A stretch of DNA of 64,000 nucleotides from Planctomycetota bacterium (lineage in GTDB: Bacteria > Planctomycetota > Phycisphaerae > UBA1845 > UTPLA1). The notes beneath the pieces were generated by a model, which was not told the DNA's origin, searched no databases, and saw only the letters and a list, made by a program, of their open reading frames with translations. Position numbers and translations under genes: made by a program. Below are positions 27,125 through 54,102 of the stretch, in pieces. The stretch lies in the NCBI GenBank assembly GCA_016712275.1, contig JADJRI010000009.1:113772-177771 (forward strand). The letters are read 5' to 3'. Within the stretch, counting starts at the first letter, position 1; the number at the start of each line of letters is the position of its first letter.

Positions 27125-28036
27125 CTAAATCCGCTCTCCGCACTCCGGACATCGTGGCTCGACGAGGGATTTGAGGACGTACTGACACCGGCGGCAACGG
27201 GTTTCGTAATCCAGCAGGCTGACTTTTGAAGCGACCCACAACGCAATCGCGACGCCGATCGCAGCGGGAGCGATCGGGGCGAAAAATGGGTATGCTTCCG
27301 AGTCCACAATTCTTGGCATGAGCATTTGCGCGAAGCCGTGCAATCCCGGCGATGCAAGGAACGCGGCTGCCAGTCCCCCTGCGAAGGCCCGCACGATTCT
27401 GCCCCGTCGGACCTTCGCCCGATTCTGATCCGCACGAAAACGCGCATTCTCGAATGTGCCGCCCACTTCAACTGTCTGGAGGCGGTGGTGGGTCTTGATC
27501 ATATCAAGGCACGAATCAAACGATCCCTCCACGATAGCCGCCTGAGGAAGAATGATCGCTCCGGTGTTTGCGGTGAACACAAAAAGGCAATTGCCTTTCT
27601 CAACGATCTCCTTGATTTCATCCCAGGGATAGCGCAACGTCTCGTTGGCGGTCATTGTTGTCACGCCGACGGCATCGACGACCATTTCCGTCGGCCGCCC
27701 GAGGTTGGGAATCGCCCCCTGTTCAATTGCCGATTTAAGTCGTTTTACGTAGTCCTTGCGAATCGAGCCGGACAGTGTGAGAAGAAAGTACACAAAGATA
27801 AGACCGCAGATGAGAATCGCGAACCAACCCTCCTTGTACGCGAGACCGAGCCCGACGAGCGGCACTAGAATCAGGTACTTTCGTGCCCGGCCGATCTGTT
27901 CCCGGATGCGCGGATCGATCTCCGACAGGACTTGCGCTCCTGCGAGTAGCGAGTCGGCATCGAGCTGATAGACGATTCGAACGCCTGTCGTTCCAGATGC
28001 GCCCGTTGATGCGGTGAGATTCGACGCAGGCTCCAT
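27125..28036 (-). CDS. Membrane protein with a YcxB-like (bacterial PH-like) domain, four predicted TM helices and a C-terminal CxxC...CPECG zinc ribbon. Candidate retron effector.
   Basis: TM hairpin 1 is KYLILVPLVGLGLAYKEGWFAILICGLIFVYFLLTL. The YcxB-like core is LRYPWDEIKEIVEKGNCLFVFTANTGAIILPQAAIVEGSFDSCLDMI. TM hairpin 2 is IVRAFAGGLAAAFLA...FFAPIAPAAIGVAIALWVA. The C-terminus is ETRCRRCQYVLKSLVEPRCPECGERI. The gene starts 32 nt downstream of the RT stop on the same strand. Confidence 0.6.
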   Translation of the reverse strand: MEPASNLTASTGASGTTGVRIVYQLDADSLLAGAQVLSEIDPRIREQIGRARKYLILVPLVGLGLAYKEGWFAILICGLIFVYFLLTLSGSIRKDYVKRLKSAIEQGAIPNLGRPTEMVVDAVGVTTMTANETLRYPWDEIKEIVEKGNCLFVFTANTGAIILPQAAIVEGSFDSCLDMIKTHHRLQTVEVGGTFENARFRADQNRAKVRRGRIVRAFAGGLAAAFLASPGLHGFAQMLMPRIVDSEAYPFFAPIAPAAIGVAIALWVASKVSLLDYETRCRRCQYVLKSLVEPRCPECGERI

Positions 28037-34051: not shown

Positions 34052-34957
34052 TCAGTTCTGCGGGCCGCCCGTCTGATTCTGAATCTTCTTCAGGGCTTCG
34101 CTCAATTCCTCGCTGTAGTTTCCGCTCTGAATCTGCTTCAGCAGCTCCGCGGCCTTTTCCCGGTTCGCGGGGTCCAGAAGGCTGCCGTTCAAAGCGCCGA
34201 ACTGATCGCTGCCATCGAGCGCCGCCTTAACGGTTGGCAGCTTCGCCAGGACATTGTGATTTCGAACGAGATCGCGGATCGGGCTTGAGTCGATCTCCTC
34301 ATTGAGCCGAACGATCGTCGTCGCGAGCACGTGTCTGGGCGAACCGGCCACGGTATCGGGATGGTGTGCAACCTCCCTCGCCTGCGGACCGAGCAGCGCT
34401 GCGCTCCAGCAGAGCGCGAGCACAACCAGACCGCCTTCCAGCGCTCCGATCGATGTCCCAGTGAAGCGATCCGTTCCACGAAGGATCGGCCGCTTCAGGA
34501 TGACCTTTTCGCGAACCTTTCGAACGACCGTCGTTGTCACGATCATCGTGAGCAGTACGGCGAGGCCGCAGGCAATCAAGTTGCCAATCGTGCTGGGCTG
34601 TCCGCCGTTCATTAACTTGATGGCGGGTTCAGCGAAGTTCGGTCTGGCCGACACGAGCACCATGAGCGCAATCGTCACGGGCAGCATGACAATCTTCCGG
34701 AAGCCGCCGCGCCACAGGCCGTGAAGACCGGCCATGCCGATGATGGCCGTCGCGCCCTGACCAAGAAGGGAGTTGGATTCGTGGCCGAAGTAGAGTCCGG
34801 TCCCGACGGCGCCGAATATCAGTCCGACGCCGAGCCAGGGGAAACTGCTCTTTGACGCGGACTTGTCGAACACAAAATCCGTCTCCCGACGGCCGCTGCG
34901 CGGGGCAGCCTGGGCGGCGTTTCGATTGATCACCGGGGGTTTTCGAACGGCATCCAT
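34052..34957 (-). CDS. CvpA-family membrane protein
   Basis: There are four hydrophobic segments plus a soluble C-terminal domain. This is a composition and topology call. Confidence 0.5.
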   Translation of the reverse strand: MDAVRKPPVINRNAAQAAPRSGRRETDFVFDKSASKSSFPWLGVGLIFGAVGTGLYFGHESNSLLGQGATAIIGMAGLHGLWRGGFRKIVMLPVTIALMVLVSARPNFAEPAIKLMNGGQPSTIGNLIACGLAVLLTMIVTTTVVRKVREKVILKRPILRGTDRFTGTSIGALEGGLVVLALCWSAALLGPQAREVAHHPDTVAGSPRHVLATTIVRLNEEIDSSPIRDLVRNHNVLAKLPTVKAALDGSDQFGALNGSLLDPANREKAAELLKQIQSGNYSEELSEALKKIQNQTGGPQN

Positions 34958-43001: not shown

Positions 43002-44810
43002 TTACCCTGCCCTTTCCATATACATTTGATGCAATAATACGAGCGTCCAGAGGTTCTCGAATTCCAGACGGCTCATGTGCGGGAGGCGGCGTTCGAGAGC
43101 TGCTCGATCGACCAGTTCGCCGAAGCCGTCGTCGCTCGCGAATTTCGCGTCGATGACTGCCTTGCAATCGGTCGGCATGGCGAATGGCGGGCGGCGTCCC
43201 TTGATCATTCGGCGAATAGTTTCGGTCATCGGGACTGGAAGGCTCATCGCCAGGCGCTTCAGCCGGTACTTGAGCGAGCGGATCGGGCTCGACATCGGCA
43301 CGCCAAGTCCGGCCTCCACGACGGCGGCAGCCTGGGGCGACACCTTCCTTAGAAAGGCGACGTACAGCGCGTCGCGCGATTTGACGGCGTCGGGAACGCG
43401 CATCGTCCGCTCGAAGATGGAGAAGTAATTGAAGGGCGAAGTCTGCCAGAGGAAGAATCGCGCGCGGTCTTCGCCGGGGAAAAGCCAGTTCATGCCGCGA
43501 TCGTAGCGGCGGAAGTGGACGGCCTTTTGTGCGACGGATTTTTCGGGATAAGAGTTGAGGCGATCGCGAAGCGATGATTCGAGCGCGCCCGGCGGGAGTC
43601 GCATGATGGATTCGGCTTCGCGGACGGGCGTCGCTTTGTTGTGGGGACGCAGAAGGCCTGCAACATATTGATCGATCGTGAGCGATTCCGCAGGGCGAAG
43701 GTCTGGGAAGATGAAGTCGCCGCCGTCGCCGGTGATGTAGATCGCGTCGTCGCCCCAGTCGGAGACGAGCTGTTCGAGAAAGAGGAGCAGCGACCCGTGG
43801 GCGATGGAGTTCGTGCCGGAGAGCGCCCGCAGCAGGAATTGCTCCGCGTCCGGCGACGGCTGGCCGAGGCGGTAGAGCCGCCACGGGATGTTGAGCGCGG
43901 CCGCCAGGGATTCGGCTGCCACGGCATCGGCACTGGCGACGCCGTGGGCATCGAGGTATGTGGCGGCGACGCATGGGATTTTTTCCCGCGCGAAGAGGCC
44001 GGCGACGACGCGCGAATCCTTGCCGCCGCTGAGGCTGAGGATGCGCTTGCCGGGCAGCGCCGGAAGAAGCGAGCGGGCGGCAGTGTTCGGCCCAGAGGCC
44101 CGCGGAGTTCGTCGGCATAGGCGTCGGCGGATGTGCCGGGGGCGTCTTTCTCGTCGAAGTTGGATGGAGTACGTGGTGTGGAGGGCGGCTTTGACCCGGC
44201 TTCCATCGAGCCGGACATCGAACACCGCGCCGCCCGGGGCGTGGTCGATGCCTTCCCAGAAGGTTCGTGCGCCGATGAGATGGCGGAAGACGAGCGCCTG
44301 CGCCCAGGCGAGGCGGTCGAACTGCCTTGCGGCCGAGAGGCGGACGACGACATCGCATTCGCGCGAGATGATGACGCCGGCGTCGCTGCGGTGCCAATAG
44401 AGTGGCAGTCTGGTGAAGGGGTCGGCGAAGACGATGGCGCGCCTCGCCGTGGGGTCGAGCATGGCGACGACATACTCGCCTTCGTTCGCGCGCGTCCAGG
44501 CGGCCAGCCGATCGCGGGGGAGCGTATCGCCCGCGAAGAGGGCATCGGCCAACGCGCGGAGGTCGTCGAGGACGGCGGCGACATCGTCGCGATAGATGCG
44601 GCCTTCGAGGGTGATGGTTCGCGCGCCGGCGGTGATGGTCTGCACGGGGTAGGTTGGCCGACCGGTGTGGCCGACGAAGAGGCCTTCGGCGGTATGGACG
44701 ATCGAGGTTTGATCGCGCGGTGAGAATTTCCGGGCATCGAGGGCGGCGCGGAAGCGGACGGCCGCTTGGGGTGCGTCTGACGGCGTGATCCAGAGCGAAA
44801 GTCCGGGCAT
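43002..44810 (-). CDS. Asparagine synthetase (AsnB)-family amidotransferase
   Basis: A 602-aa ORF with the PP-loop (ILSLSGGKDSRVVAGL) and AsnB C-terminal domain features. The N-terminal glutaminase domain lacks an obvious Cys-1. An Arg-rich linker (RRERRPRHIRRRLCRRTPRAS) may hide a compensated double frameshift. Confidence 0.65.
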   Translation of the reverse strand: MPGLSLWITPSDAPQAAVRFRAALDARKFSPRDQTSIVHTAEGLFVGHTGRPTYPVQTITAGARTITLEGRIYRDDVAAVLDDLRALADALFAGDTLPRDRLAAWTRANEGEYVVAMLDPTARRAIVFADPFTRLPLYWHRSDAGVIISRECDVVVRLSAARQFDRLAWAQALVFRHLIGARTFWEGIDHAPGGAVFDVRLDGSRVKAALHTTYSIQLRRERRPRHIRRRLCRRTPRASGPNTAARSLLPALPGKRILSLSGGKDSRVVAGLFAREKIPCVAATYLDAHGVASADAVAAESLAAALNIPWRLYRLGQPSPDAEQFLLRALSGTNSIAHGSLLLFLEQLVSDWGDDAIYITGDGGDFIFPDLRPAESLTIDQYVAGLLRPHNKATPVREAESIMRLPPGALESSLRDRLNSYPEKSVAQKAVHFRRYDRGMNWLFPGEDRARFFLWQTSPFNYFSIFERTMRVPDAVKSRDALYVAFLRKVSPQAAAVVEAGLGVPMSSPIRSLKYRLKRLAMSLPVPMTETIRRMIKGRRPPFAMPTDCKAVIDAKFASDDGFGELVDRAALERRLPHMSRLEFENLWTLVLLHQMYMERAG

Positions 44811-44849: not shown

Positions 44850-45500
44850 GGGGAAATCAACGGAGGGGAGAAATGAAAAATTGAAAATGAAAAAGGAAAA
44901 AGTGGGGGAGGGTACGAGGGGCCGAGGGGGCAAGGGGCCGAGTGGGGAGCGGGTTGGGGCGGGGAGTTCAGGGGGTTCGGGGGTTTTCGGGACCGTTGAA
45001 ATTAGTTGATTTTTCAGGAGGGGCGGGATGGGGAAGGGGATTTCGGAGGCGGGGTCGGCGCTCCGGGGATGGGGAAAATTCAGGCGGGGGGTGAATGGTG
45101 ACAAGTTCAAGTTTGCATCAAGCTGTTTGTTCCGTGCGCGTTCAAGCATACGAGTGCCTCCGGCATGACAGTGAGGTCATGCGGCGGGCGCGGGCGAATG
45201 TAATGTCGTGCCGGGGATAGAGTTGCTCAGCGATCCGGTGTGCGCGCGAACGCGTTGAAAAGGGGAGGGGGAATGGGGGTTTTCGGGGGCATTCGTGCGG
45301 GGTTAGGGCGAGTTTTTGACGAGGTCAGGGAGTGGTTTTGAGGGCGAACGCGGTTATTGATAGCGAGAAAGCGGGTGCGCTCGATTTGCAGAATGTGCGA
45401 CGAAAGTGGGTTCCGGCGCGCAGATTTCGTTCGGTGGCGAAATAGCATCGCCGGGGTTGAAACCGTTGGGGTGGGAATAATCGAGCCCCCAAATGGTTAC
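44850..45500 (+). other. Polypurine / G-run-rich non-coding tract (plus strand), with potential to form G-quadruplex or H-DNA
   Basis: About 650 nt with almost no C in its first ~170 nt and many G4-G6 runs (ggggagaaatgaaaaattgaaaatgaaaaaggaaaaagtgggggagggtacgaggggccgagggggcaaggggccgagtggggagcgggttggggcggggag...). The tract lies between two minus-strand genes. Confidence 0.5.
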
Positions 45501-45522: not shown

Positions 45523-47511
45523 TCAGATCGTGACAAAGCCGATTGCACTTAGATACTCAAACGTGGGATCGTAGAAAGCGTGCTTTCTCGTAGGATCGAC
45601 TGCTTCCCCTTCCGGAATCACGATCACCATCCCTTGGCGGGCTCGGGTCAGCAAGACACGATAGGCATTCTTAAGGTACATTTGGCGCTCTGGCTTCCGA
45701 ATTCGATTCCATCGATCGCCACAGAAGGACCAGTGCTGCCAGCCAGCGTCAGTGTAGCGAAAGTCACCATCCCAAGTGACACACGCCCAGTCAAGTTCGA
45801 GGCCCTGCACCTGAAACTCCGTCGCAACATCTTCCAGATAGTAGGACGACCGCACATCTTCTTTGGCGTTCAGGAACCAGTTGCACGGGTCGATCTTTGT
45901 GCGAACGTCAATCGCGTGAGGCTTCAGCCGTTGGGCCTCAGATGAAACGACGATGCCATATCGCTCGGTGCCACGGGCATGTGTTCTGATCCAGTCCTTA
46001 GCAGCCCGAAGGTCACGCGTTAAGACAATTGGATAATTCGGAGAGACTTGGCTGAGCGTCTGACGTGCGGAATCCGGCTCCAGGTCGAGCAGTTCTTTCA
46101 CCAGCCGTGAGACATTTTCCGCCCCGAAAGCTCCGCATCGAGACCGACAAATGAAGTTCGTCTCTTTTGAAGACGTGCGGTCGCGATTCAATTTTTCGTA
46201 GAACTTCTCCAGCTCCAAATTCGCTGTCTGTGAGGTTTGAGGATAGATAGACCCGCCACTTAGGGAACCGATCGTGGACGGCATTAATCCACTCGCTGAT
46301 CCCTGCCTCACCCCGATTTATCTCCTGGCCGCCACCAACGAGACATACAATAACGGCCCAGTCCAAGTGTCGATCCATACAAGAAACTAGAAACTCGGGC
46401 TCCGAGTATTTGAAGTCGCTACGACCCTTCTTCTGTTGCATGAAGCTCCGGGTCCTTTCGAGCGTCCAAGCCCGTTGCGCTTCGTCAAAGATAGCAACGT
46501 GCTCGATTGGCGCTGACCATCCCTAAGGCATTCATCTCTGAATCTGTGGATGATCTGTATGAACGCTTGAACTTCGCTGTGGACAGTGCCTTTGGTGACC
46601 TTGTTCCCACGCTCCTTTTCGTAGCGAACTTTGTCGCGGGCGAGTGCCTCCCGCAGCACCTTCACCAGGGGATCGTTTCCAGAGAGGAATACGCTGTAGA
46701 GTTCGCTGTCTTTGTTAATGTGCTTCGTCGCGATATTGAGTCCGACGAGGGTCTTTCCAGCGCCTGGAACGCCCGTCACAAAGCAGATAGATTTCTCGCG
46801 GCGGTCTCGCGAGGTGTTGATGATTTCATCAATCGTGCTTGTCGTGAGCTGGAGATTGATCGCGCTGGCGTCGCTGCGGGAAATCTCGGCGACCGAGTGG
46901 CCGTTGTAGAGTGCCATGGCGGCTTCGACGATGGTCGGCGTGGGATGATAGCGTCCATCTTCCCAGACGCGAGTATCGATGGCGCCGCCTTGGGTGAAGT
47001 CGAGCACCTTGCGAATGACATCCGCGAGTGTTTCAGGCGTGCCATGAATTGGCGTAAGTATGTCGTCGTGTGCGCGGATGAGTTCGCCCTGCGCGGGTGC
47101 TCTTCGTGCGCCCGTTGGAATCAAGATCGGGGCGATGGGACGCGTGTGGCTGGTTTCATGAAAGTTCTTCAGGTCTAGTGCGTAGTCCCAGACTTGATCT
47201 GTTGCGTGACTTGTGAACCGTTCTTCGCCGACTTTGAATTCGAGGATGAAGATCACCGGGCCGATGAGTGCGAGTACGTCAATTCGTTTTCCGAGTCGGG
47301 GTATGGAGTACTCGAAATAAACAGAGCCTTGCGCGCGATATGGTTCGAGAATGGGCTTGAGGATTCTGATCTGTTCGAGCCAAGCGGTTGATTGAGTGGA
47401 TTCGAGACTGCTTCCACTGGTTGCGGCGCTGCGGGAGAGTCTCCCGAGGATTTCGTCCTGCGATTGATCCAGGAAGTTGGCGATCGAATCTGAGTAGTAA
47501 GCCCGGTCCAT
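45523..47511 (-). CDS. PD-(D/E)xK nuclease-like N-domain + DUF2075 P-loop NTPase/helicase-like protein, split by two frameshifts
   Basis: The N-terminus has a D...EFK motif ([22 protein letters not shown]). The Walker A is [20 protein letters not shown]. The middle part is in the 46013..46441 ORF ([19 protein letters not shown]), and the C-terminal part in 45523..46311 ends with [21 protein letters not shown] is lower than the genome background. Confidence 0.7.
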
Positions 47512-47828
47512 TCCTGAAATCGCGCTCCGGCAAACGGTTATGTCCTACTTCATTTGAAATAAGTCTGGTATGGTCGATGGAGATTTCTCCGGCCGGCATC
47601 TCGGACGAATCCCAGGATAGGCGAGTGCCCACATCGGTTCGAGCGGCTCACCATCGGCCAGCTGATGATGGCAACCAGGGAACCTTTTCTCCCGGGGAGC
47701 GTAGAGTCGTCGGCGGGGTCGGGCTCGTCGGACGGGGGACCGCCCAAGGTTGCGCCGAGGGATCCGGGCCGGATGGTGTAATGTATTGTTGGGACTGAAG
47801 GGTGGTCTTGCTCTACATGGCACTCGAT

Positions 47829-48240
47829 GGTGACGATTGTTCACCGGCGTGACGCCGGTGCCACAGCGCCGTGGCGGACGCTGCGATTTGGTATATCACA
47901 CGATGTTGGGAGTGCGTGTCGGGCTGGAATCGGGCGTTGGCCTTGCTGGGGAGCATGCCGACGCGAAAGGCCGTCGGCATGGCACACGAGGGTGACGATT
48001 GTTCACCGGCGTGACGCCGGTGCCACAGCGCCGTGGCGGACGCTGCGATTTGGTATGTCACACGATGTTGGGAGTGCGTGTCGGGCTGGAATCGGGCGTT
48101 GGCCTTGCTGGGGAGCATGCCGACGCGGAAGGCCATCGGCATGGCACACGAGGGTGACGATTGTTCACCGGCGGGACGCCGGTGCCACAGCGCCGTGGCG
48201 GACGCTGCTGGACGCCGATGCCCCAGCGCCATGACGGACG
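47829..48240. repeat. Tandem repeat array: 162-bp unit x 2.3 copies (about 98% identical) plus an adjacent diverged partial unit
   Basis: Units start at 47829, 47991 and 48153. Each unit contains four perfect hairpins: catgccgacg-cgaaaggc-cgtcggcatg, ggtga-cgattgt-tcacc, ccggcg-tga-cgccgg and gccac-agcgcc-gtggc. A diverged copy of the 50-nt sub-unit follows at 48200-48250. Confidence 0.85.
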
Positions 48241-48299
48241 GTGTGCTTTGGCATGTCACCCGACAGGTACGACTGTTTGGCGCGGAGGATCGGCTGCGG

Positions 48300-48803
48300 A
48301 TGGACAGGCTGAAGCGACGGCGGACGGTGCTGTGGATTCTCGGGGTGGTGTTGTTGCTGCCGCTCGTGCCGTTGATGTTCATCGGATTGCAAATCGGTCA
48401 GCCGCGTCTTTTTCTCATCATTGCAGGCTGGCTGCTTCTGAATGGGCTGATCGGTTATGTCGGCGGCCGTCGGGGGAGGCTTGCGATTGCCGTGCTCGGT
48501 CCGATGGCGCTGGTCGCAGCGGGACTGATCTACACCAGCCTTACAAATCCCTATGGCGGGCTTCGCAGCGCGCCGCCGGGAACCTATCCAGAGTGGTGGG
48601 GCCTCGCGATCATCATACCCATGGCAACTGTCGCTTTCGGCATTTCATTCGTGATGGCGGCGATGGGCATTCGGATTGTGGAGGAGCGCGGCCGATGCAG
48701 GTCGTGTGATTACCTGTTGAAAGGCCTGGCGGAGCCGAGGTGCCCTGAATGTGGCACTGATTTTGATCCGACGGAGGTTGAAGCGGGCGGGGCCGAGGCG
48801 TGA
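48300..48803 (+). CDS. Four-TM membrane protein with a C-terminal CxxC...CPECG zinc ribbon (paralogous C-terminus to the 27125..28036 gene)
   Basis: Begins at the internal Met (MDRLKRRRTVLWILGVVLLLPLVPLMFIGL...). The C-terminus is RGRCRSCDYLLKGLAEPRCPECGTDF. The upstream part of the listed ORF lies inside the tandem repeat, so it is unlikely to be coding. Confidence 0.55.
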   Translation: MDRLKRRRTVLWILGVVLLLPLVPLMFIGLQIGQPRLFLIIAGWLLLNGLIGYVGGRRGRLAIAVLGPMALVAAGLIYTSLTNPYGGLRSAPPGTYPEWWGLAIIIPMATVAFGISFVMAAMGIRIVEERGRCRSCDYLLKGLAEPRCPECGTDFDPTEVEAGGAEA

Positions 48804-49067
48804 TTTCGGGGCGGCGTGTGGAGGGGTGGGCCTGAGGTGGCGATCAGGGTTGATTGAGGGGTTTGGATTCCGGGTGGTTGGGCGGCCGGGCTCGGCGCAA
48901 GAGTCAGGCGCCCGATCCACGCGTGGACCGGGCGCCCCGTTCACCCCAGCCCGAGATGATCATTTCTCTGGTGGGGCCGCGCCACGGACGATGCCGGGCC
49001 TCTCTCCTTGTTAGTCTGTCTGGGGCCGGTCGCGGTTTTCAGCCGGGGGTTTGCGCGGCGCCCATTC

Positions 49068-49534: not shown

Positions 49535-50674
49535 CTACACAGCACTGTTTGACGCCGCGTTCTGGCCGATCAGGCTGCGCACCTGATTTGACAGATCGCC
49601 CTGTCCGAAGACGAACGTCGCCTTCGCGCCTGACAGGATCTCCTGCAACAGTTCAAGCTCCCTGAGCCGTGCGAGGGTCGGGTTTTCGGCGAGCAGTTTG
49701 GCGGTGTTCGCCTGGCTGCGCGCCGCGGCCGTCTCCTCGCGCCGGCGGATCAGGTTCGCCTCGGCCTGCTTCTCCGCGGCGATGACCTGGTTCAGGATCG
49801 TCTTCATGTCGCCCGGCAGGATGATGTCGCGCAGACCCACCGACACGACGTTGACACCAAACTCCGACGCCCGCTTCGCGAGGGCCTCTCGGACTTCGCC
49901 GCCGATCGACTCCTTGTCGCGGAGCAGTTCGTCGAGCGGCCGCACGCCGACCGCCGCGCGCAGGGCGAGCTGCGCCTCGCGGTAGAGCGTCTGGCTATAG
50001 TTGTCGACATTCATGACAGCGGCCACGGGATCGATGACCCGGTAGGTGACGACGAGATTCACGCGGAGCGTGACCTTGTCGCGCGTCATGATTTCCTGTC
50101 CCGCGACGTCCGCCACGAGTTCGCGCCGGTCCACGGACTTCCAGGTCACCTTGCCGGCGCCCTTCCAGTAAACGTGGCTTCCCTCGCCGACGGTTTCGAT
50201 GAGCTTGCCGTCGCGGAAGATCATGGCGGTCTCGTGTGCCGCGACTTCGACACCGGTCAGGTGCAGGCTCGTGCCGGCCAGCGCACAGATGGCCTCGATG
50301 CGCGGGTGGTTGAGCTTGAACTCGCCGATGTCGTGCGTCTCGACCTTCAAGTCGGCCGGCGCACGCCAGAAGGCGTGACGGCCCGGGCCGAGCAGCGCGA
50401 AGAGCTTGTCGTTGCGCCAGACGATGGCGCGCTCCTGGTCGCCGAGTTCGATCAGCATGAGCTGGTCGCGGATCGAATCGTGCTGCACGATGAGATCAAG
50501 CAGCTGGTGTTCGAAGCGCACGCCCAGCGTATTGACAATCTGCACCTCGTCGCGCCGGGCGCTGATGAGGCGGCTCGGGAACCAGTAGGTTCCGGGCATC
50601 AAGAGGCGTGCGAAGTTGCCATGGCGGAAATGCAGGCCGCGCTCATGTTGACGGATACGGACAATCGGGTTCAT
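49535..50674 (-). CDS. SPFH/band-7 (stomatin/HflC-like) domain protein
   Basis: SPFH-like segments are present (VTLRVNLVVTYRVIDPVAAVMNVDNYSQTLYREAQLALRAAVG), followed by a coiled-coil tail. The start was taken at the internal Met (MNPIVRIRQ). Confidence 0.65.
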   Translation of the reverse strand: MNPIVRIRQHERGLHFRHGNFARLLMPGTYWFPSRLISARRDEVQIVNTLGVRFEHQLLDLIVQHDSIRDQLMLIELGDQERAIVWRNDKLFALLGPGRHAFWRAPADLKVETHDIGEFKLNHPRIEAICALAGTSLHLTGVEVAAHETAMIFRDGKLIETVGEGSHVYWKGAGKVTWKSVDRRELVADVAGQEIMTRDKVTLRVNLVVTYRVIDPVAAVMNVDNYSQTLYREAQLALRAAVGVRPLDELLRDKESIGGEVREALAKRASEFGVNVVSVGLRDIILPGDMKTILNQVIAAEKQAEANLIRRREETAAARSQANTAKLLAENPTLARLRELELLQEILSGAKATFVFGQGDLSNQVRSLIGQNAASNSAV

Positions 50675-50738: not shown

Positions 50739-50832
50739 CTCTTTCGCCCCTGCCGGGGCTGACGACTCTAGTTTGCCATTACCCACGGCTTGCGCCCGTG
50801 GGCTAATCTCTTTCGCCGCTGCCGCGGCTTTT
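50739..50832. repeat. Triple-hairpin dispersed repeat, copy B
   Basis: The sequence is ctctttcGCCCCtgccGGGGCtgacgactctagtttgccattaCCCACGGcttgcgCCGTGGGctaatctctttcGCCGCtgccGCGGCtttt. Confidence 0.7.
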
Positions 50833-51284
50833 CGTATGCCGCTTGCGAGGCTTCTCGTATGCCGCGACTGTGGCATCTGTTCGGAGCTTCCGCTGCCGTC
50901 CGTCGGCCGTACTGACGGCCTTATGTTCATGCCGCGTGGTCGCGGCGGTTGGTTTCAAACTTCCCGCGGAATCGGATTCGAGGAACGATCGAGCCTTTGC
51001 GGCCGGCGGAATCCCGCGCTATGCCCGACGCCTGTCGCACGGATTTGACCGGCGTCTCCGCCTCCCCGCGGCGAGCACCGGTCGAATGCTGTTTGGCGGC
51101 GTCGGGCCGACACTTCGGGATTTCTGAGCCGGCTGTCAGAGTGCCGGCACGCCTCGCCTGTATGAGCGCGGTGCGTGGCGGCTGCTCGATTGTGCGTCAT
51201 CCTCCGATCCCACGGGCCGTGCGATTTCTCGCTCTCTTCGGTGACAGCGAAGTGGGGATTTTTTTGCCCTTCCCCTGAGGGCTC

Positions 51285-51621: not shown

Positions 51622-51660
51622 AAAAAGCCCCGGAGACTCGCATCTCCGGGGCTTTTGAAG
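51622..51660. terminator. Bidirectional intrinsic terminator with no obvious CDS upstream
   Basis: AAAAAA is followed by the hairpin gccccggagactcgcatctccggggc and then TTTT. Confidence 0.55.
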
Positions 51661-53462: not shown

Positions 53463-53613
53463 CCAGCGATCGCCGGAACAATTCCGAAGGCCCATCACGC
53501 GGCTGATGCTGCGCGGAGAACGCGAGGTGAACAGAATTGGCGGTGAACGAGGTCAATGCATGCTACAGTCACCTGACGTCGGTATCCCAGGTGACTAACC
53601 CGCGACAACTTTC

Positions 53614-53706
53614 CTCTTTCGCCCCTGCCGGGGCTGAGGATGTCATGCGTTGGGCACCCACGGCTGACGCCGTGGGCTAATCTCTTTCGCCGCTGCCGCG
53701 GCTGGG
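53614..53706. repeat. Triple-hairpin dispersed repeat, copy C
   Basis: The sequence is tctttcGCCCCtgccGGGGCtgaggatgtcatgcgttgggcaCCCACGGCtgacGCCGTGGGctaatctctttcGCCGCtgccGCGGCtgggg. Confidence 0.75.
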
Positions 53707-53837
53707 GAGGACGATTATTGCTGCGGTAGCTGGGGAAGGTGATTGTTGCTGCCTCGGTTAGAGAGGGCCATCGCCGCTGTCGCGGGTGGGGCGCTTCCGA
53801 ATTGATAAGAATGTCGCGTCGATCTCGGCAAAGAGCT

Positions 53838-53930
53838 TCTTTCGCCCCTGCCGGGGCTGAGGATGTCACACTAATGGCACCCACGGCTGACGCCGTGGGC
53901 TAATCTCTTTCGCCGCTGCCGCGGCTGGGG
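53838..53930. repeat. Triple-hairpin dispersed repeat, copy D (near-identical to copy C), followed by a fourth partial hairpin at 53955-53985
   Basis: The sequence is tctttcGCCCCtgccGGGGCtgaggatgtcacactaatggcaCCCACGGCtgacGCCGTGGGctaatctctttcGCCGCtgccGCGGCtgggg. The partial hairpin downstream reads tctttcGTCGCtgccGCGGCgggg. Confidence 0.75.
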
Positions 53931-54102
53931 TGCAACATCGTGGCACTCGCGGTTTGCGCGTGGATAGTTGTCTTTCGTCGCTGCCGCGGCGGGGATCGGT
54001 GCGGTCATAGCGACGATGACTTGTATTCATTCCTCGCGGTTCCGCGCGGGCGCCGACTCTGGGTTTGTGATGTGTACTTGTCGTTAAGTCGGTCGATCGC
54101 GA

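Follow-up and report, generated by a model that had tools for sequence, protein, structure and literature searches.

A sequence of 162 nt is repeated head to tail just upstream of a membrane-protein gene in an uncultured planctomycete, beside a candidate defence gene, and the locus raises the question of whether this array encodes protein, yields structured RNAs, regulates its neighbours, belongs to a mobile or satellite-like element, or results from faulty assembly. "The window" below is the whole stretch of DNA that was analysed, 64 kb in length.

The tandem array and its surroundings

The tandem repeat is real. Tandem Repeats Finder (TRF) reports a single array at 47816-48208 with a period of 162, 2.4 copies, 97% matches, 0% indels and a score of 744; a separate repeat search of the region agrees with it, and a 30-mer taken from the unit has 3 occurrences in the window versus 0 in shuffled sequence, so that the repetition exceeds chance. 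The first-pass annotation, made from the letters of the sequence, had described a 162-bp repeat in 2.3 copies, which is borne out, and its phase (47829, 47991 and 48153) denotes the same array in a different register. Its figure of about 98% identity between units was right as to near-identity but slightly high as a number, since copy alignment gives about 97% (substitutions at 5 of 162 positions between copies 1 and 2, and at 1 of 69 positions between copy 2 and the 69-nt copy 3). The array lies in a 788-nt gap, with a frameshifted DUF2075/PDC-S41 gene (minus strand) on one side and, as had been stated, a zinc-ribbon membrane gene directly downstream (an orphan gene with 4 predicted membrane helices, ending at 48803). 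The features are as follows.

46387..47511, minus strand: N-terminal part of a divergent DUF2075 / Schlafen-type helicase gene, PADLOC candidate PDC-S41 (Pfam, PADLOC)
47816..47977, no strand: repeat unit 1, 162 nt, with 5 differences from unit 2, two of them at the 5' edge of unit 1 (TRF, repeat search, copy alignment)
47978..48139, no strand: repeat unit 2, 162 nt (TRF, repeat search, copy alignment)
48140..48208, no strand: truncated repeat unit 3, the first 69 nt of the unit (repeat search, copy alignment)
48211-48263, no strand: older copy of a 53-nt sub-unit, 81-83% identical (repeat search, blastn, local alignment)
48300..48803, plus strand: orphan membrane-protein gene with a C-terminal zinc ribbon, given from its probable start (ORF list, Pfam, homologue alignment, start-site inspection)

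The DUF2075 gene is split by the frameshift, its C-terminal part lying at 45523-46311. In the downstream protein, four membrane helices are predicted by reading the sequence, and Pfam gives a weak DZR_2 match only.

The array also preserves traces of an earlier event. The 53-nt sub-unit occurs once per unit, at 47851, 48013 and 48175 (the last truncated to 36 nt), and the only diverged copy stands alone at the 3' end of the array, which refutes the proposal that each unit contains an internal, diverged duplication of about 50 nt. This older copy has a local alignment score of 61, compared with a shuffle mean of 18 (sd 2.9). Together, 48175-48210 and 48211-48263 form a duplication with a 36-nt period, two copies at about 80% identity, that is seen only once; the rest of the unit has no homology above shuffles to either flank. 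Because this older duplication lies at the 3' end of the younger array, the site has evidently been duplicated more than once.

Searches for further copies were negative throughout. Neither blastn nor motif scans found another copy of the unit in the 64-kb window, a degenerate 30-mer of the sub-unit was absent from genome_contigs, metagenome_contigs and viral_contigs, and BLASTN of the repeat against plasmids and phages returned nothing. Exact-protein look-ups of the window's genes gave no match. Relatives were reached through the SPFH protein, which in them is no more than 57% identical over its full length (75% across a fragment of 127 residues), and their loci hold neither the membrane gene nor the repeat; DUF2075 homologues reach no more than 69% identity and lie in other contexts; a metagenome scan with the membrane protein recovered zinc ribbons only; and the loci of neighbour-gene homologues elsewhere contain no such repeat. 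Around the array there are no convincing flanking inverted repeats (the best pair, 16 nt at 81%, reaches into coding sequence) and no tRNA-derived direct repeat, on which grounds a MITE or genomic island was dismissed. A REP/BIME or MITE was also rejected in view of the lack of dispersed copies in the 64-kb window and of the 30-mer in the three public collections.

The reading that we favour, with moderate confidence, is a tandem duplication that is recent, non-coding and confined to one lineage, a minisatellite of the promoter/leader tandem repeat kind. Among the options that the first-pass annotation had left side by side, a satellite-like element is the one preferred here, the array being young, confined to this locus within the window, non-coding and unmatched in the searches run. 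Unequal recombination between direct repeats, or replication slippage between them, would have produced the copies, two hairpin-forming palindromes may have helped the duplication, and the array probably has no dedicated function; its copy number would be expected to differ among strains.

Palindromes, folding and possible functions

The units also carry two palindromes and a short upstream open reading frame (ORF), where frame 0 is the frame shared with the membrane gene.

47817..47852, plus strand: 11-codon upstream ORF in frame 0, MALDGDDCSPA followed by a stop (six-frame translation)
47842..47860, no strand: palindrome P1, CACCGGCGTGACGCCGGTG, perfect 9-1-9 (repeat search, hairpin scan, motif scan, folding)
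47954..47981, no strand: palindrome P2, CATGCCGACG-N8-CGTCGGCATG, with a 10-bp perfect stem predicted at -17.7 kcal/mol (repeat search, hairpin scan, motif scan, folding)

The palindromes exceed chance. With a perfect hairpin defined as a stem of at least 8 bp and a loop of 3-12, 5 of the 21 in the window fall in the array, while shuffles give about 10.6 per 64 kb, and two perfect palindromes are present per unit versus about 0.03 expected per 162 nt. Purely neutral sequence is not expected to hold them, so the excess hints at either function or a special mutational origin, and a regulatory role is possible. P1 recurs perfectly at 48004-48022 and, altered at a single position, at 48166-48184; as RNA it is predicted to fold into a stem of 8 bp closed by a UGA loop (-13.7 kcal/mol), and the TGA of that loop is the frame-0 stop, i.e., the stop codon of the upstream ORF. 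P2 straddles the junction of units 1 and 2, with the ATG of the upstream ORF in its 3' arm and AAGG in its loop. Its second instance (48116-48143) has one mismatch, is predicted at -13.9 kcal/mol and contains the start ATG annotated in GenBank at 48141, and the truncated third unit lacks P2 altogether; the claim that a 10-bp perfect stem (CATGCCGACG/CGTCGGCATG) is present in every unit consequently fails. Three shorter perfect stems per unit had also been listed, the strongest of which corresponds to P1 and stands, while the others are merely 4-5 bp and unremarkable. In addition, a 5-bp hairpin (GCCAC/GTGGC) and a weak terminator-like hairpin (CGTGGC/GCTGCG) share bases and are predicted to be mutually exclusive.

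These elements could belong to a functional cis-regulatory leader or operator array, in which P1 would bind a dimeric regulator, P2 would act in the RNA as a hairpin hiding the AAGG and AUG of the short upstream ORF, and the number of units would tune or phase-vary the membrane gene and perhaps the divergent DUF2075 gene. The palindrome excess argues for this, as do the spacing of the AAGG in the P2 loop at Shine-Dalgarno distance from the ATG in the arm, the upstream-ORF stop codon in the P1 loop, the two mutually exclusive hairpins, and a position that fits a divergent promoter region; promoter tandem repeats that modulate expression provide a precedent (PMC12817950). However, a scan restricted to sigma-70-type sites found no such promoter in 47300-48900, within or near the units, and neither the ORF list nor Pfam places a regulator gene next to the locus. 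Motif scans confine both palindromes to this array within the 64 kb (P2 together with a further segment of the unit was also absent from viral_contigs), the P2 stem of unit 2 is disrupted by one of the few substitutions, the 5-bp hairpin is no longer present in the gene-proximal older sub-unit, which also contains no partner for P1, and nothing of the arrangement is conserved in any other genome. We consider a regulatory array possible, though unlikely. If the array is instead a minisatellite, as we prefer, it may still act passively, in that any upstream promoter would be pushed 324 nt farther from the gene and the two palindromes and the 11-codon upstream ORF would be multiplied in the leader.

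An array of structured small RNAs, another option of the first-pass annotation, is not supported. Such RNAs would be cut from a multimer into units and target the membrane protein or the mRNA encoding it, on the model of type III toxin-antitoxin RNA repeats or tandem sRNA genes. A tandem repeat immediately upstream of a gene of about 170 codons and beside a candidate defence gene is consistent with this, as are the 36-nt sub-period at the gene-proximal end, the stable hairpins predicted for P1 and P2 (-13.7 and -17.7 kcal/mol), and the fold of the whole array on the minus strand (z = -3.29). On the plus strand, however, the whole array reaches only z = -1.35, and the GC-corrected folding energy of the unit is ordinary when compared with all 162-nt windows of the 64 kb (plus-strand z from -0.3 to -1.4, minus-strand z approximately 0). 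The folds predicted for the old and the young copies of the sub-unit differ. Rfam 15 gave no match in the region at gathering thresholds and only chance-level matches at E up to 10. HDV-like ribozymes have a nested double-pseudoknot core (helices P1, P1.1, P2 and P3 in the ribozyme's own numbering) with a catalytic C; the HDV ribozyme was the best Rfam match, at 19.8 and 15.7 bits versus a gathering score of 50, and was rejected, as 31 core-covering model positions are deleted and the match is limited to a P4-like hairpin and its flanks. Individual units contain no sigma-70-like promoter and no canonical terminator, and no terminator-like site lies between 48209 and 48299, although the source genome does use canonical terminators (e.g., 51623-51656). 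The downstream four-helix zinc-ribbon protein has no ToxN/AbiQ match, PADLOC matched neither it nor the repeat ORFs, and there are only 2.4 units. Taken together, these results make small RNAs very unlikely.

Reading frames across the array and the start of the membrane gene

Two long ORFs, 47827..48234 on the plus strand and 47813..48382 on the minus strand, are present in the ORF list. A third relevant ORF, 48033..48803 in frame 0, had been missed by the first-pass annotation; frame 0 has one TGA per unit, and a T-to-G change in unit 3 turns this TGA into GGA (48174-48176), so that the ORF continues into the membrane gene. The upstream ORF has a twin at 47979-48014 (MAHEGDDCSPA followed by a stop), while in its third copy, which begins at 48141, the stop is missing and the frame continues into the gene.

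No frame of the array is coding-like. GC content at the second codon position lies between 0.62 and 0.72 in all array frames versus 0.38-0.50 in genes, and codon log-odds range from -0.06 to -0.53 bits per codon versus +0.1 to +0.5 for genes in frame (-0.21 and -0.33 for the two fully open frames, and -0.06, the least negative, for frame 0). A word-indexed protein search with the two open frames other than frame 0, joined into one query, found no homologues; in the same kind of search with frame 0 plus the gene, the array part matched only the GenBank protein itself; and an exhaustive HMMER search with the frame-0 unit gave four non-self matches, all of them short motifs multiplied in unrelated repeat proteins. 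The suggestion that the long ORFs are artefacts is thus supported, since no frame resembles a gene in codon-position GC or codon usage and the three open frames have no credible homologues. A repeat protein was dismissed on account of the negative codon scores, the missing homologues and the TGA in each frame-0 unit. Of 19 genes in the window, 12 end in TGA, more than in any other stop codon, for which reason the in-frame TGAs are read as stops. An alternative genetic code or selenocysteine, the latter calling for a SECIS hairpin beside the in-frame UGA and for Sec machinery in the genome, appears unlikely as well, TGA being the main stop codon and the window containing no tRNA-Sec (its tRNAs are a tRNA-Lys and a doubtful tRNA-Ser only).

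The start of the downstream gene is affected by the same sequence. GenBank annotates the protein (MBK8268298.1, IPK83_08335, 220 aa) from the ATG at 48141, inside unit 3. We consider that the true start is probably the ATG at 48300, giving 167 aa, because the sole real homologue, P0002 (157 aa), has no N-terminal extension and begins directly with the first membrane helix, and because a GGAGGA at 48284-48289 lies 10 nt upstream of this ATG. The alignment of P0002 to the 256-aa ORF begins only at residue 137, and the P0002 locus has an 80-nt upstream gap with no repeat in it. By opening the reading frame towards the gene, the T-to-G change in copy 3 may have caused the annotation pipeline to place the start codon within the repeat. 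Repeats of this type create long false ORFs and may drag an annotated start codon into non-coding DNA, of which MBK8268298.1 is an example.

It could still be argued that the repeat is, or recently was, coding in frame 0, where it would supply the membrane protein with a Cys-containing repeat domain at the N-terminus, with the TGAs of units 1 and 2 representing inactivating mutations or recoded positions (e.g., selenocysteine in a U-x-x-C motif). The periods of 162 and 36 are both multiples of three and, with the least negative codon score in the very frame of the gene, form weak hints of a coding past; the GGA of copy 3 opens the frame to the gene, the 220-aa form is the one in GenBank, and the differences between old and young sub-units are mostly conservative. 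Against this, the frame-0 score is still not positive, GC at position 2 is 0.64, only 2 of the 9 old-versus-young changes are synonymous (the neutral proportion), the peptide has no homologues apart from itself, P0002 does without the extension, and TGA is a normal stop here with no tRNA-Sec in the window. Replacement of selenocysteine by Gly rather than Cys would also be atypical. A coding origin in frame 0 accordingly appears highly improbable.

We attach just as little weight to an assembly artefact, in which a long-read assembler or the merging of strain variants would have produced extra copies that are present in no one cell. The source is a metagenome-assembled genome, and the frameshift in the neighbouring DUF2075 gene could be a sequencing error. 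The copies, however, differ by substitutions only, with no indels, unlike typical long-read noise; they keep a clean register next to a distinct, older and diverged end copy; and an array of 390 bp is far shorter than long reads, which should span it. Finally, there is scarcely any reason to believe that the array is co-transcribed with the membrane gene and acts at the RNA level to restrain a potentially toxic zinc-ribbon membrane protein beside a defence gene. In such a repeat module every unit would provide a hairpin that sequesters a start codon, the 11-codon upstream ORF with its end in a hairpin loop, and two further downstream hairpins that exclude one another, and the whole would amount to a type III-like toxin-antitoxin system or attenuator whose effector is a membrane protein and whose repeat unit is unusually long.

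Comparison with known systems

As it stands, the array is one more intergenic tandem duplication and matters little; if the palindromes were functional, it would be a rare Planctomycetota case of copy-number-tunable regulation, acting on an orphan membrane protein beside a candidate defence gene. Tandem sRNA genes such as PrrF1/PrrF2 and OmrA/OmrB resemble it in consisting of near-identical, adjacent, intergenic copies of 100-160 nt. There, however, every copy comes with a promoter and a Rho-independent terminator of its own, and neither was found in the units described here, which also lack an Rfam match. Type III toxin-antitoxin systems (ToxIN, CptIN, TenpIN) consist of several short RNA repeats (~34-45 nt) upstream of a toxin gene. 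Like them, the array immediately precedes a small gene read from the same strand and lies in a defence-gene neighbourhood, and it has a 36-nt sub-period at its gene-proximal end. They differ from it in that the main unit here is 162 nt with only 2.4 copies, the 36-nt period occurs once, no terminator separates the repeat from the gene, and the downstream product is a zinc-ribbon membrane protein rather than a ToxN/AbiQ-type endoribonuclease.

REP/BIME clusters and MITE-borne minisatellites such as BrickBuilt of P. gingivalis are, like the array, intergenic, palindrome-rich, tandem and devoid of coding capacity. BrickBuilt has 19 occurrences in one P. gingivalis strain and inverted-repeat ends (PMC4596501), in contrast to a unit and two palindromes found at one locus in 64 kb with no flanking terminal inverted repeats.

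The closest counterparts in our preferred reading are bacterial intergenic minisatellites and promoter tandem repeats, exemplified by the MIRU-VNTR loci of M. tuberculosis. In that species, the units of promoter tandem repeats measure tens of bp, their copy number is variable, and they can cause coding-sequence starts to be misannotated (PMC12817950). The array departs from them in its 162-nt unit (versus a 57-bp example; PMC12817950), in which no sigma-70-type promoter was detected, and in standing alone as an orphan locus of an uncultured planctomycete; it is a putative member of the class, copy-number variation being the defining behaviour. The units of both are arranged head to tail, measure tens to 100-plus bp (here within the range of approximately 10-200 bp that marks a minisatellite) and lie in non-coding DNA upstream of a gene, and in both the copies are highly identical, are thought to arise by slippage or recombination, and may fall within a mis-annotated coding-sequence start.

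Geometry of the repeat and the start of the membrane gene

The region between positions 47816 and 48208 contains the sole strong tandem array of the window (period 162, 2.4 copies, 97% matches, no indels, score 744 in Tandem Repeats Finder), and a second repeat search returned the same register, with two whole units and a partial third. Between units 1 and 2 there are 5 mismatches in 162 positions, and between unit 2 and the 69-nt unit 3 just one; a unit-derived 30-mer is found three times in the window but in none of the shuffles. The tandem repeat described by the first-pass annotation is real, and its copies are near-identical, at 97% matches rather than the approximately 98% identity first given.

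Features of the array and its neighbors
47816-47977: repeat unit 1 (162 nt)
47978-48139: repeat unit 2 (162 nt)
48140-48208: truncated repeat unit 3 (69 nt)
47827..48234, plus strand: open frame across the array
47813..48382, minus strand: open frame across the array
46387-47511 and 45523-46311, minus strand: DUF2075 / Schlafen-type helicase gene left of the array, split by a frameshift (PADLOC candidate PDC-S41)
Ending at 48803, plus strand: small membrane-protein gene right of the array, product with four hydrophobic helices and a C-terminal zinc ribbon

The array sits in a 788-nt divergent intergenic region. Each unit holds one 53-nt sub-unit (at 47851, 48013 and, shortened to 36 nt, 48175). 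A single diverged copy (81-83%) occupies 48211-48263, at the array's 3' end, and does not lie within each unit as had been supposed. To the left, the DUF2075 gene covers profile positions 1-325 and 429-651 of PDC-S41, a PADLOC candidate defense gene, and its split marks it as a pseudogene or else stems from an indel error in the long reads. To the right, the membrane gene was matched by protein search to GenBank MBK8268298.1 (locus tag IPK83_08335, 220 aa), a protein of a metagenome-assembled 'Planctomycetes bacterium' whose locus-tag series we take to be that of Danish activated-sludge long-read MAGs. A further zinc-ribbon gene in the window (27125-28036, minus strand) also encodes a YcxB-like domain (PF14317, E = 9e-9), has no repeat upstream, and has only a 47-residue stretch including the zinc ribbon (45% identity) in common with the gene at 48300-48803.

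GenBank places the start of MBK8268298.1 at ATG 48141, within repeat unit 3. The membrane protein has a single real homologue, P0002 (157 aa, 30% identity). It aligns solely with the membrane and zinc-ribbon part and opens straight with its first membrane helix; on the contigs that carry it, the P0002 gene has an 80-nt upstream gap from which the repeat is absent. The motif GGAGGA lies 10 nt 5' of ATG 48300, in a placement comparable to that at the asparagine-synthase-like gene, and the SPFH gene has a nearer AAGGAGG. Codon statistics, homologue length and the upstream GGAGGA all favor ATG 48300 over 48141, and point to a product of 167 rather than 220 aa. Given the alignment and start of P0002 and the GGAGGA before ATG 48300, the whole array would be 5' non-coding DNA, and the mis-placed GenBank start codon a by-product of the repeat.

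Smaller repeats also occur elsewhere in the window. The near 5' flank of the asparagine-synthase-like gene (43002-44810, minus strand) has a cluster of short low-complexity tandem repeats at 44867-44985 (AAATGAA x4.4, GAGGGGAC x4.4, GGGGGTTCA x2.8). That of the SPFH/Band 7 gene (49535-50674, minus strand) has a 23-nt tandem repeat at 50815-50865 (2.2 copies, 85% identity); the likely start of this gene, MNPIV..., has AAGGAGGTG before it.

Palindromes and folding

Perfect hairpins (stem of at least 8 bp, loop of 3-12) number 21 in the window, 5 of them within the array, compared with ~10.6 per 64 kb and ~0.03 per unit in shuffles, a clear excess over chance for the array. The palindrome P1, CACCGGCGTGACGCCGGTG (first copy at 47842-47860), has a perfect 9-1-9 geometry and recurs in every unit, the copy in unit 3 carrying one change. 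The 10-bp stem of the palindrome P2, previously described as perfect in each unit, is so only at 47954-47981; the copy at 48116-48143 has a mismatch, and unit 3 stops before it. Of the three further perfect stems reported, one is the strong P1 and the rest are unremarkable, at 4-5 bp. Folding energies are -13.7 kcal/mol for P1, -17.7 kcal/mol for P2 and -13.9 kcal/mol for its second copy. The array hairpins have no T run; most of the window's remaining hairpins with stems of at least 9 bp are terminator-like, three lying between A and T runs (e.g., 51623-51656).

Two perfect palindromes per unit would not be expected of neutral sequence, and their geometry is suggestive: P2 carries the ATG of an 11-codon upstream ORF in its 3' arm and AAGG in its loop, the P1 loop contains the stop codon of that ORF, and the two small hairpins after P1 are mutually exclusive. 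These features allow the possibility, which we consider unlikely, that duplication multiplied a functional leader/attenuator or a pair of operators. Neither conservation nor a promoter, a regulator or a transcript backs this explanation; P2 is broken by one of the six substitutions, and the palindrome and upstream-ORF features are absent from the old sub-unit copy adjacent to the gene. No sigma-70-like promoter was found in 47300-48900, and the units contain only weak terminator-like sites (6-bp stem, tail with just three Ts in a row, ATTTGG).

An array of structured small RNAs, as originally suggested, finds little agreement with the folding results. The whole array folds with z = -1.35 (plus strand) and -3.29 (minus strand) against dinucleotide shuffles; compared with every 162-nt window of the 64 kb after GC correction, the unit fold is ordinary in all phases (plus-strand z between -0.3 and -1.4, minus-strand z ~0). 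Young and old sub-units fold differently, the 5-bp GCCAC/GTGGC hairpin being missing from the old copy. The region matches no Rfam family at gathering thresholds and gives only chance-level matches at E up to 10; the best, HDV ribozyme (19.8 bits, where the gathering score is 50), was rejected, as its alignment omits 31 positions of the core and retains only a P4-like hairpin (P2) with its flanks.

A second repeat- and hairpin-rich intergenic region of the window (53615-53994, within intergenic 53463-54102) contains two copies, 223 nt apart and 94% identical, of a 93-nt segment, each copy holding a match to RF01687 (Acido-Lenti-1 RNA; 53657-53703 and 53880-53926, 47.8 bits each). A 24-nt hairpin module, TCTTTCGCCSCTGCCGSGGCTGRG, occurs there six times at spacings of 65-84 nt, and the hairpin CCCACGGC-TGAC-GCCGTGGG of this region loosely resembles P1.

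Coding content of the array

The period of 162 is divisible by 3, which leaves two frames open throughout the array, and the earlier view of these long ORFs as artefacts of the period holds. Position-2 GC is 0.62-0.72 in all array frames and 0.38-0.50 in sixteen window genes, and codon log-odds are -0.06 in frame 0 (in frame with the membrane gene), -0.21 to -0.53 in the other array frames, and +0.1 to +0.5 for genes in the correct frame. The two open frames have no homologues in a protein search. Frame 0 contains one TGA per unit, placed in the P1 loop; in unit 3 it is replaced by GGA, and therefore an ORF (48033..48803) continues into the membrane gene. A word-indexed search with the frame-0 peptide returned only the GenBank protein itself, and exhaustive HMMER against 1.84 billion representatives added four other matches, all short motifs multiplied in unrelated repeat proteins and hitting differing parts of the query. 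Between old and young sub-units, 2 of the 9 frame-0 differences are synonymous, a neutral proportion. TGA is the most frequent stop in the window (12 of 19 genes), which contains no tRNA-Sec. Judged on composition and homology, none of the ORFs appears gene-like, and the array does not constitute a repeat protein. A 93-nt tRNA-Ser(gct) called by ARAGORN at 34352-34444 (minus strand), inside the long ORF 34052..34957, goes unreported by the Rfam tRNA model at the gathering threshold and is probably a false positive.

Readings of the array as a set of RNAs, as coding sequence or as an artefact are each very improbable. That a type III-like RNA repeat controls a membrane effector is likewise very improbable. 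The locus does not belong with the type III toxin-antitoxin loci.

Relatives and origin of the array

No further copies of the unit, P1 or P2 were found elsewhere in the 64 kb, and BLASTN against plasmids and phages gave no match. Pattern scans found neither a degenerate 30-mer fitting both sub-unit versions in genome, metagenome and viral collections, nor two further unit segments in the viral collection. Exact look-ups of the window proteins matched no contig. Loci reached through the SPFH protein (at most 57% identity over full length, 75% over a 127-residue fragment; Phycisphaerales and Planctomycetota MAGs) or the DUF2075 protein (at most 69%, several phyla) contain neither the repeat nor a common gene order. 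Neither flanking inverted repeats nor tRNA-derived direct repeats point to a mobile element, which speaks against a MITE-type origin, and the array, a single locus in the 64 kb, was assigned to no REP/BIME or MITE family. The 74-nt part of the unit holding P2 has no homologue in the left or right flank.

These results fit a young, lineage-specific, non-coding tandem duplication, in keeping with the satellite-like element proposed at first. The site has been duplicated at least twice, once with a 36-nt period at the gene-proximal end, the older event, and later as the 162-nt array; the copies could have arisen by recombination or slippage between direct repeats, perhaps aided by the palindromes. 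Among described elements, the nearest are bacterial intergenic minisatellites or promoter tandem repeats, whose defining property is copy-number variation; on its sequence, the array is best filed as an orphan minisatellite of the ordinary sort in a 5' region. In M. tuberculosis, promoter tandem repeats vary in copy number, altered promoter output has been proposed, and one such repeat falls within a disputed CDS annotation (PMC12817950).
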